Assembly (NCBI RefSeq): GCF_053078305.1 | Contig: NZ_CP166879.1 | Direction: 5' to 3' (one strand) | DNA length: 64,000 bases | Shown: positions 2,920-5,091 of the stretch, piece by piece | Numbering within the stretch: position 1 is the first letter of the stretch | Layout of the letters: each line of letters opens with the position of its first letter | The notes under the pieces: model-generated | The model's database searches: none | Seen by the model: only the letters and a program-made list of their open reading frames with translations | Told to the model about the DNA's origin: nothing | Translations under genes and position numbers: made by a program

Positions 2920-3072
2920 CGCTTATTCTCAGGGCGGGGCGAAATTCCCCACCGGCGGTAAATCAACTCAGTTGAAAGCCCGCGAGCGCTTTGGGTGCGA
3001 ACTCAAAGGACAGCAGATCCGGTGTAATTCCGGGGCCGACGGTTAGAGTCCGGATGGGAGAGAGTAACGATT
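2920..3072 (+). promoter_or_regulatory. FMN riboswitch (RFN element) in the ribB leader
   Basis: Conserved RFN blocks visible: agggcggggcgaaattccccaccggcggtaaa ... cccgcgagcgc ... ggacagcagatccggtgtaattccggggccgacggttagagtccggatgggagag, about 100 nt upstream of the ribB ATG. Confidence 0.85.
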
Positions 3073-3174: not shown

Positions 3175-3828
3175 ATGAATCAGACGCTACTTTCCTCTTT
3201 TGGTACGCCTTTCGAACGTGTTGAAAATGCACTGGCTGCGCTGCGTGAAGGACGCGGTGTAATGGTGCTTGATGATGAAGACCGTGAAAACGAAGGTGAT
3301 ATGATCTTCCCGGCAGAAACCATGACTGTTGAGCAGATGGCGCTGACCATTCGCCACGGTAGCGGTATTGTTTGCCTGTGCATTACTGAAGATCGCCGTA
3401 AACAACTCGATCTGCCAATGATGGTAGAAAATAACACCAGCGCCTATGGCACCGGTTTTACCGTGACCATTGAAGCGGCTGAAGGTGTGACTACCGGTGT
3501 TTCTGCCGCTGACCGTATTACGACCGTTCGCGCAGCGATTGCCGATGGCGCAAAACCTTCTGATCTGAATCGCCCGGGCCACGTTTTCCCACTTCGCGCG
3601 CAGGCAGGTGGAGTACTGACGCGTGGCGGTCATACTGAAGCGACTATTGATCTGATGACGCTGGCAGGCTTTAAACCGGCTGGTGTGCTGTGTGAGCTGA
3701 CTAATGACGATGGCACGATGGCGCGTGCACCAGAGTGTATTGAGTTTGCCAATAAACACAACATGGCGCTCGTGACTATTGAAGACCTGGTGGCATACCG
3801 TCAGGCACATGAGCGTAAAGCCAGCTGA
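3175..3828 (+). CDS. ribB: 3,4-dihydroxy-2-butanone 4-phosphate synthase
   Basis: 217 aa from ATG at 3175 ([48 protein letters not shown]...); the ORF-track upstream extension from 3082 overlaps the riboswitch and is rejected. Confidence 0.95.
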
Positions 3829-3859
3829 AAACCGCTGCTTAATTTACTGCCTTAATCAA

Positions 3860-3896
3860 GAAACCGAAGTTGTAGCAGGCTTCGGTTTTTATTTTT
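3860..3896 (+). terminator. Intrinsic terminator after ribB
   Basis: Hairpin aaccgaag-N10-cttcggtt followed by a T-rich run (tttttattttt). Confidence 0.6.
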
Positions 3897-4089
3897 CCCT
3901 GCTATGCAAGATGTTAATTCCGCTTCTCTTTCTATGAGAAAATTTCATTAATATCAGGCATTCTTTTTCATTATGATCAAAATCATATAATTGTTCCGTT
4001 ATTATGCGACCATATGAATATATCCGAAAAAGGATATGTGAAATTTATGCGCTAAATGTTTAGTATTGTTAAATATTAAGGGTAAAAGG

Positions 4090-4260
4090 ATGTTTATCGC
4101 CTGGTACTGGATTGTATTGATTGTTCTGGTTGTGGTGGGTTATTTCCTGCATTTGAAACGTTATTGTCGGGCATTTCGCCAGGACAGAGACGCACTGCTT
4201 GAAGCGCGGAACAAATACTTAAACAGTACGAGAGAAGAGACAGCCGAAAAGGTAGAATAA
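4090..4260 (+). CDS. Hypothetical small membrane protein (56 aa from ATG; ORF track starts at TTG 4066)
   Basis: MFIAWYWIVLIVLVVVGYFLHLKRY... has one clear TM helix then a charged tail; AAGGG about 10 nt upstream of the ATG. No homolog recognised. Confidence 0.4.
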   Translation: MFIAWYWIVLIVLVVVGYFLHLKRYCRAFRQDRDALLEARNKYLNSTREETAEKVE

Positions 4261-4278
4261 GGCTTTAGTGAAACTAGC

Positions 4279-4307
4279 AGAAGTTGTCCATGCGCTGGAC
4301 AACTTCT
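4279..4307. terminator. 12-bp stem hairpin between the convergent small ORF and zupT (possible terminator)
   Basis: agaagttgtcca-tgcgc-tggacaacttct perfect inverted repeat; only a weak T tract on either strand. Confidence 0.4.
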
Positions 4308-4317
4308 GATGTTGCTT

Positions 4318-5091
4318 TTAACCAATTCCCGCCGTTTGTAGCAGCACTAAACTGAATCCCATCACTGACATTCCACATAGTACGCCATAGCTGGGGTTAT
4401 TATTAGGGTCAATCTCTTTGGCGAGCGGCATTAATTCATCAACCGAGAGCGCCACCATAATTCCTGCAACCGCCGCCATGATTGCCGCCATGACCACGGG
4501 GGAAATCATGCTACCGAGGATTAACCACGCCAGCACACCACCAAGAATTTCTGCCAATCCAGAAATCCCCGCCCACAGAATTGCCGTGCGTTTAGAACCC
4601 GTTGCTGCATAAACCGGGCCTGCAACCGCCAGACCTTCAGGAATATTGTGCAACGCGACGGCCAGTGCGATGCCAAATCCCAGCTCCAGGTTGCTGCTTG
4701 CCGTGACAAAGGTGGCAATCCCTTCCGGGAAGTTATGCAGACTGATGCCGAGAGTGAGCAGAATGGCTGTGCGCTTGATCGATTTTGGCAACGGCTGCAC
4801 CGATTTTTGCATTAAATCCTGCGGATGCGCATGTGGCAACATGCGGTCCAGGCCAAAATAGCCAAGCAGACCGAAGATAAACATTCCATAACCCAACACA
4901 GGCGACATTCCTTCAGCTGCTAGTGCGGCAGGAAGCATTTCCATTAATGAGATGAGCAACATGATCCCCGCCGCAAATCCTAGCGAAAACGCCAGTAAGC
5001 GGTTCGAGGGTTTTTGCCCGAGAACGCCGAGAAACGCGCCAATAAACGTGGCTGCCCCCGCCAGTATGGTCAGAATGAGAGGTACTGACAT
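4318..5091 (-). CDS. zupT: ZIP-family zinc transporter ZupT
   Basis: ORF track 4318..5133; recognised 257 aa protein starts [22 protein letters not shown]..., polytopic membrane protein with His-rich ZIP motifs (HNFPEG, HNIPEG). Confidence 0.9.

Follow-up and report, generated by a model that had tools for sequence, protein, structure and literature searches.

The ribB-yqiD-zupT locus

The DNA analysed here, a stretch of 64,000 nucleotides from an Escherichia coli genome (RefSeq assembly GCF_053078305.1, contig NZ_CP166879.1; hereafter the window), contains ubiK, an FMN riboswitch (positions 2921-3069; 120.9 bits in Rfam), ribB and a small open reading frame (ORF), followed on the other strand by zupT, ygiD and ygiC. 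The small ORF is yqiD (b4756), listed as 'protein YqiD' in the RefSeq annotation of E. coli, and translation of YqiD has been demonstrated by chromosomal epitope tagging (VanOrsdel 2018, PMC6001520). A previous reading of the window, made from the sequence alone (the sequence-only reading), had described the 56-residue product as a tiny single-helix membrane protein, and the sequence of YqiD, with its one hydrophobic helix, agrees with this description. Searching Pfam with YqiD gave nothing above threshold and a sub-threshold match to DUF2621 only; the designation 'DUF4051' was seen for YqiD only as a name given by a source. Among the papers searched, we found none on the regulation of yqiD or on a link between yqiD and FNR. 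The coordinates of the features discussed below are collected in Table 1.

Table 1. Features in and around the ribB-yqiD spacer (window coordinates)
Feature	Position	Strand	Basis
ribB intrinsic terminator (stem followed by a T run), upstream bound of the spacer	3859-3890	+	Stem and T run
FNR-like site TTGATCATAATGAA predicted by Myers 2013 (Table S6, 3181683), overlapping the palindrome	3967-3980	-	11.2 bits on the FNR position weight matrix
Perfect 6-4-6 palindrome TATGATCAAAATCATA	3972-3987		Mean pairwise identity 0.92 over 29 loci
Conserved 14-bp core ATGATCAAAATCAT, proposed FNR dimer site, centre 3979.5, containing a Dam GATC	3973-3986		ATGATC and TCAT invariant in 29/29 loci
Predicted extended -10: T-R-T-G-n (4003-4007) and hexamer GACCAT (4008-4013)	4003-4013	+	Conservation over 29 loci
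Second inverted repeat AUAUAUCC-GAAAAA-GGAUAUGU, possible 5'-terminal mRNA hairpin	4018-4039	+	-9.1 kcal/mol, z -5.5 (E. coli)
Predicted yqiD transcription start	4019-4022	+	Extended -10 and nirB geometry; ChIP centres at about 4015-4025
Distal 5' UTR, highly conserved, with Shine-Dalgarno AAGGG at 4078-4082	4038-4089	+	Mean pairwise identity 0.78
yqiD coding sequence, 56 aa; one N-terminal hydrophobic helix and a charged tail (conserved RQDRDALLEARNK)	4090-4260	+	Sequence and relatives
Stem-loop terminator between the convergent yqiD and zupT	4278-4308		Stem-loop

Several observations concern the neighbourhood rather than yqiD itself. In the aerobic/anaerobic comparison of Myers 2013 (PMC3688515, Table S12), the ratio is 0.46 for ribB and 0.42 for yqiC (ubiK); with the direction judged from the acnB and hyb values, both genes appear to be about 2-fold higher anaerobically. 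The same study reports a weak FNR peak at ribB (3182480), called by one algorithm only. At positions 3827-3897, on the ribB terminator, the Salmonella sRNA family STnc240 of Rfam scored 29.1 bits, below its gathering threshold of 55, and there may be an RNA derived from the 3' end of ribB at this place. Finally, in an aar (AraC negative regulator) mutant of EAEC 042, the DUF4051 gene orf3334, a yqiD homologue, was upregulated, one of only 3 of the 23 tested genes that rose (PMC5570504); this hints at H-NS-related control of the AT-rich yqiD locus.

A conserved palindrome marks the upstream edge of the yqiD control region

The spacer between the ribB terminator and the yqiD start codon at 4090 is 261 bp long with a G+C content of 31%. 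Reading its sequence directly, we found TATGATCAAAATCATA at positions 3972-3987, a perfect 6-4-6 inverted repeat that ends 103 nt before the ATG, in accordance with the sequence-only reading, which had placed such a palindrome about 100 nt 5' of the 56-aa ORF. By composition alone this element is unremarkable, and chance readily produces repeats of its size: perfect 6-4-6 repeats number 29 in the window and 19 ± 4 in dinucleotide shuffles, and when the 261-bp spacer is shuffled, one or more perfect repeats with 6-bp arms and a loop of 0 to 10 appear in 75% of cases.

We therefore turned from composition to conservation. One genome per species was scanned with an alignment of 15 YqiD relatives, which yielded 27 loci; together with the window itself and a divergent E. 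coli allele, these gave 29 distinct upstream regions. Relatives of YqiD occur in Escherichia, Citrobacter, Salmonella and a few neighbours, and the 29 loci span five genera (Escherichia, Citrobacter, Salmonella, Intestinirhabdus and one Enterobacter). Within the core ATGATC-N4-TCAT, both ATGATC and TCAT are invariant in all 29 loci. The mean pairwise identity of the 29 regions is 0.95 over the 14-bp core, compared with 0.39 over the 22 bp upstream and 0.57 over the 15 bp downstream, and the sequence 5' of the core could not be aligned among the loci. The base preceding TGA is an A in both half-sites in every lineage, and the spacer bases C6, A8 and A9, hence the Dam GATC, are kept in 28 of the 29 loci. 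The sequence-only reading had made its proposal hinge on conservation in related genomes, and rather than being lost there, the core is retained across all five genera.

Given that conservation of the core lies far above that of its flanks, the palindrome is more than a chance repeat. A palindrome with no role in DNA binding, arising by chance or acting as an RNA hairpin, would fit the frequency of such repeats in AT-rich DNA, and its arms could pair in RNA that reads through from ribB. As an RNA hairpin, however, the palindrome is weak (-2.9 kcal/mol, z -1.15), a search of Rfam gave no matching family, and the arms are invariant across the 29 loci, so that there is no covariation; these results and the difference in conservation between core and flanks make such an origin extremely improbable. 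In one lineage, the Citrobacter amalonaticus/sedlakii group (locus L014, 2885-2912), the right half of the palindrome also forms part of a perfect 8-bp inverted repeat, TCGAAATC-N8-GATTTCGA, with -8.8 kcal/mol as RNA, which is absent from the other lineages.

The surroundings of yqiD are conserved on one side. zupT adjoins yqiD in convergent orientation in 29/29 loci; the upstream neighbour differs from locus to locus and may be ribB, a fimbrial operon or other DNA. The divergent E. coli allele, found in about 991 of 5,426 complete E. coli genomes, that of the type strain ATCC 11775 among them, illustrates this arrangement. It spans yqiD and the 3' part of zupT and is about 85% identical to the window (window 3972-4800; L003 4001-4834; L002), with a fimbrial usher operon directly upstream in the place of ribB. 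The first base of the palindrome is precisely where the divergent allele becomes homologous to the window. Because the core does not vary, the 5' flank and the neighbouring gene are variable, and homology of the divergent allele begins at this point, we take the conserved control region of yqiD to begin, at its 5' end, with the palindrome.

The core has the geometry of CRP/FNR-family sites

Written as ATGA-N6-TCAT, the core shows the TGA-N6-TCA geometry of sites for the CRP/FNR family. FNR is the [4Fe-4S] oxygen-sensing regulator of this family, of which YeiL is the third, poorly characterised member in E. coli. Of the 10 positions in the FNR consensus TTGAT-N4-ATCAA, the core shares 8, a better match than in 99% of the shuffled versions of the region; it likewise shares 8 of the 10 in the CRP consensus TGTGA-N6-TCACA, which places it above 98-99% of shuffles. 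Other candidates fared less well: matches to the Fur (12/19), Zur (13/23) and NikR (7/12) consensus sequences all fell within the shuffle distribution, and those to MetR, ArgR and PadR were no better than shuffles of the region. The zinc link that the sequence-only reading had drawn from the proximity of zupT is thus not borne out by the matches to Zur, Fur and NikR.

We then scored the core with position weight matrices (PWMs), a scan that the sequence-only reading had suggested. The FNR matrix was symmetrised and built from 62 ChIP-bound sites (Myers 2013, Table S6), which themselves score from 11.2 to 21.4 bits. With 12.9 bits the core is the third-best site in the 64-kb window, near the bottom of the bound range (4 of the 62 sites score lower), and in 29/29 loci it outranks all other FNR-like sites in the 200 bp 5' of yqiD. 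The base 5' of TGA is T in 81% and A in 8% of bound FNR half-sites. On a CRP matrix derived from 107 CRP ChIP-seq sites (Haycocks 2015, PMC4287617), the core reaches 9.8 bits, which ranks it sixth in the window and higher than 19 of the 107 bound sites; at the position that discriminates FNR from CRP sites, bound CRP half-sites carry G in 87% and A in 3% of cases. A literature search with the palindrome sequence returned a similar CRP site at ppiA/tsgA as its sole match.

Published FNR and sigma70 occupancy upstream of yqiD

In K-12, an FNR peak described as '5' of zupT/ribB' was reported at 3181647 (U00096.2; Myers 2013, PMC3688515). The peak was called by MOSAiCS, NCIS, CisGenome and ChIP-chip (Table S5), was also seen in an hns/stpA mutant (Table S7) and was filed under an 'Unknown' target (Table S9). 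In the annotation of 2013, from which yqiD was absent, two convergent genes ended on either side of this position. The same study lists a sigma70 ChIP-seq peak at 3181649 with values of 395 aerobically and 1002 anaerobically (adjusted p 6.7e-83; Table S2), that is, a 2.5-fold higher anaerobic occupancy at the yqiD locus. The K-12 spacer is identical to that of the window except for one base in the 5' UTR, and the centres of the FNR and sigma70 peaks convert to about 4015-4025 of the window. At about 4016, the FNR peak lies some 37 bp from the centre of the dyad, within the offsets of known sites; the resolution of ChIP is too coarse to separate two overlapping candidates.

Such a second candidate exists. 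The site predicted for this peak by Myers 2013, TTGATCATAATGAA, is the reverse complement of window positions 3967-3980; it shares bases with the left arm of the palindrome, and its offset from the core is 6 bp. Its nonoverlapping half (TTCAT) is unconserved beyond K-12-like E. coli, ATCAA is changed to ATCGA in most species, and a counterpart of the whole site is absent or weak in most other species. Because this half is unconserved across species, the comparison makes the palindrome core a better candidate for the functional site than the overlapping TTCATTATGATCAA picked by Myers 2013.

The occupancy data also bear on which member of the family reads the dyad. If it served mainly another CRP/FNR-family protein, such as CRP or YeiL, or were a hybrid site, occupancy by FNR would be secondary. 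The discriminator position, which in all 29 loci holds an A in both halves, neither the T of FNR nor the G of CRP, is in keeping with this idea, as is the rank of the core on the CRP matrix. Against it stand the documented binding of FNR at the locus in vivo, the rarity of A at the discriminator of bound CRP half-sites, and the CRP ChIP-seq data for ETEC H10407, in which none of the 111 high-confidence targets gives a peak at the yqiD locus (one data set under one condition). For YeiL, no binding site was found in the literature searched. We consider a primary role of another family member improbable.

A predicted class II promoter at a fixed distance from the dyad

The promoter was deduced from base conservation over the 29 loci, and the position of the start is accordingly a predicted one; in K-12 (NC_000913.3) it would correspond to 3183622-3183619 on the minus strand. 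The best description is an extended -10 element with the consensus TRTGn followed by nAnnAT, in which TG is present in 29/29, A(-11) in 28/29 and T(-7) in 29/29 loci and which explains all invariant columns; in other loci the hexamer reads CACTAT or CAGTAT. Between the dyad and the extended -10, not one of the 29 loci has an indel. Indels do occur in the 5' UTR; Enterobacter sp. kpr-6, for instance, lacks 42 bp there.

When K-12 promoters were aligned on their FNR sites, the yqiD hexamer, at centre+28.5, took the position of the nirB -10 (TAAGGT), and the -10 hexamers of narG and yfiD lay at +28.5 to +29.5 from the centre of the FNR site. The FNR sites of nirB, narG and yfiD are located at -41.5, -41.5 and -40.5, respectively. 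By inference from the predicted start, the centre of the yqiD dyad would lie at about -39.5 to -42.5, and the agreement with nirB would put it at about -40.5 to -41.5; this is the geometry of a class II activator. A further -10 hexamer downstream, at 4011-4016, was rejected, with T(-7) in only 3/29 loci. On the minus strand, inspection by eye of positions 3940-3960 for a divergent promoter revealed no hexamer at the right distance, in a region that is unconserved. In GFP reporter fusions, the upstream DNA of each of the two E. coli alleles is an active promoter, with a strength that differs between them (bioRxiv 10.1101/2025.06.10.658842); the two alleles have no homology 5' of the palindrome.

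The left arm of the palindrome is itself a candidate -10 hexamer. A promoter scan gave TTAATA-18-TATGAT, with 9 of 12 matches, and all 29 loci have either TATGAT or CATGAT there; transcription would then start near 3984, and the palindrome would be a by-product of the promoter. We rejected this hexamer (3972-3977), as it is accompanied by no conserved -35 (mean 2.2/6) and by no TG motif in any species. It also leaves the equal conservation of the right arm unexplained, and the sigma70 and FNR peaks are centred about 35-45 bp further downstream. This reading is very unlikely to be correct.

A second promoter model, M2, bears on the direction of regulation. M2 places the -10 at TATTAT (4000-4005) and a -35-like TCRAAA inside the dyad, with a 17-bp spacer; T(-7) is found in 29/29 and A(-11) in 25/29 loci, and the -35-like element matches at 4/6 positions in most species. 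If M2 were the promoter, transcription would begin near 4012, a dimer of FNR or another protein at about -32.5 would occlude the -35 and repress yqiD, and the presence of a -35 within the dyad would account for the conserved spacer bases of the palindrome. M2 leaves the invariant G4006, C4007, A4009, A4012 and T4013 unaccounted for, however, all of which are fitted by the extended -10, and the offset of its hexamer (centre+20.5) is unlike that of known FNR-activated promoters. Moreover, sigma70 occupancy is 2.5-fold higher in the very condition in which FNR is bound. A repressor operator is hence unlikely. The sequence-only reading had seen in the palindrome the operator of a dimeric repressor: the dimeric-regulator site is supported by the conserved dyad and the FNR occupancy, and the repressor is probably wrong, given the rise in sigma70 from 395 to 1002 and the class II offset of the -10.

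Downstream of the predicted start, the second inverted repeat (4018-4039) would sit at the extreme 5' end of the predicted yqiD mRNA. Across species, 73.5% of cells pair in this repeat and three pairs are changed on both sides; RNAalifold gave no consensus structure for it across species. In the distal 5' UTR (4038-4089), GTTAAAT/TGTTTA motifs recur with a phasing of 10 bp rather than 11 bp; they bear a loose resemblance to the direct repeats of ArcA or PhoP.

A model for anaerobic activation of yqiD by FNR

Taken together, we think it likely that the palindrome is an FNR dimer site at the yqiD promoter through which class II activation in the absence of oxygen raises yqiD transcription. Under anaerobiosis, FNR would dimerise and bind the dyad, with ATGAT-CAAA-ATCAT (ATGATCAAAATCAT) as the putative functional site. 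Located about 41 bp 5' of the predicted start, the dyad would occupy the place of the -35 element, and bound FNR would recruit sigma70 RNA polymerase to the extended -10 (TATGc GACCAT). The expected outcome is an increase in yqiD transcription without oxygen. Activation is preferred over repression because of the class II geometry and the anaerobically higher sigma70 occupancy. From the sequence and its conservation, the fixed spacing of dyad and -10, and the published FNR and sigma70 occupancy in K-12, we infer where transcription starts, which of the overlapping FNR-like sites serves, and that activation of yqiD is the result.

Two features of the dyad, the invariant A 5' of TGA and the conserved spacer bases, are not required by FNR recognition alone. 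They could possibly reflect a deliberately weak site, an overlap with the -35 of M2, methylation, or recognition by CRP or YeiL as a second reader. A dyad tuned for a distinct or dual reader, be it YeiL, a hybrid FNR/CRP input or binding sensitive to Dam methylation, strikes us as doubtful; if true, it would amount to a new recognition specificity, ATGATC-N4-TCAT, for a conserved small membrane protein beside zupT.

Occupancy of this locus by FNR has been known since 2013, and what is new is the proposal of yqiD as its target. An FNR ChIP peak published without a target thereby gains a plausible target gene, and the likely FNR binding site moves by 6 bp, onto a dyad that is conserved in Escherichia, Citrobacter and Salmonella. 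For YqiD, a 56-residue membrane protein, the model predicts induction in the absence of oxygen and so names a condition in which its function might be sought. A functional link between yqiD and zupT, which encodes a divalent-metal transporter, under anaerobiosis is speculation by analogy with small-protein modulators of transporters; such a link is conceivable because zupT is adjacent in all 29 loci while the upstream neighbour varies.

Comparison with known CRP- and FNR-dependent promoters

The yqiD element resembles class II CRP promoters of the galP1 type with an extended -10, in that a TGA-N6-TCA dyad lies about 41 bp 5' of the start (here a predicted one), TGn is present and a -35 is missing. 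T-A-T-G-A-T-C moreover agrees with the TGTGATC of CRP sites at 6 of 7 positions. In contrast to these promoters, the G5 of TGTGA is replaced by A in both yqiD halves, as in 3% of bound CRP half-sites, no CRP ChIP peak was reported at yqiD in ETEC H10407, and the occupancy data point to FNR.

The closer parallel is with the class II FNR promoters nirB, narG and yfiD/grcA. With these, yqiD shares a 14-bp dyad with a TGAT-N4-ATCA core, the lack of a recognisable -35, and occupancy in vivo by FNR and, more strongly without oxygen, by sigma70; the dyad centre and the -10 are separated by the same distance as in nirB, and narG and yfiD differ from it by at most 1 bp. Judged by its sequence and its occupancy in vivo, the element behaves like a class II FNR site and probably is one. 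It differs from the class II FNR promoters in its outer positions, which are A/T-swapped (ATGAT...ATCAT instead of TTGAT...ATCAA) and put it at the weak end of bound sites, in the extended TRTGn type of its -10, in its target, a 56-aa protein, and in that its dependence on FNR is a predicted one. The yqiD site is also one of the orphan FNR peaks with an 'Unknown' target of Myers 2013 (Table S9). Since yqiD was annotated in 2018, this peak has had a co-oriented gene 110 bp downstream, and the conserved site lies 6 bp from the predicted one.
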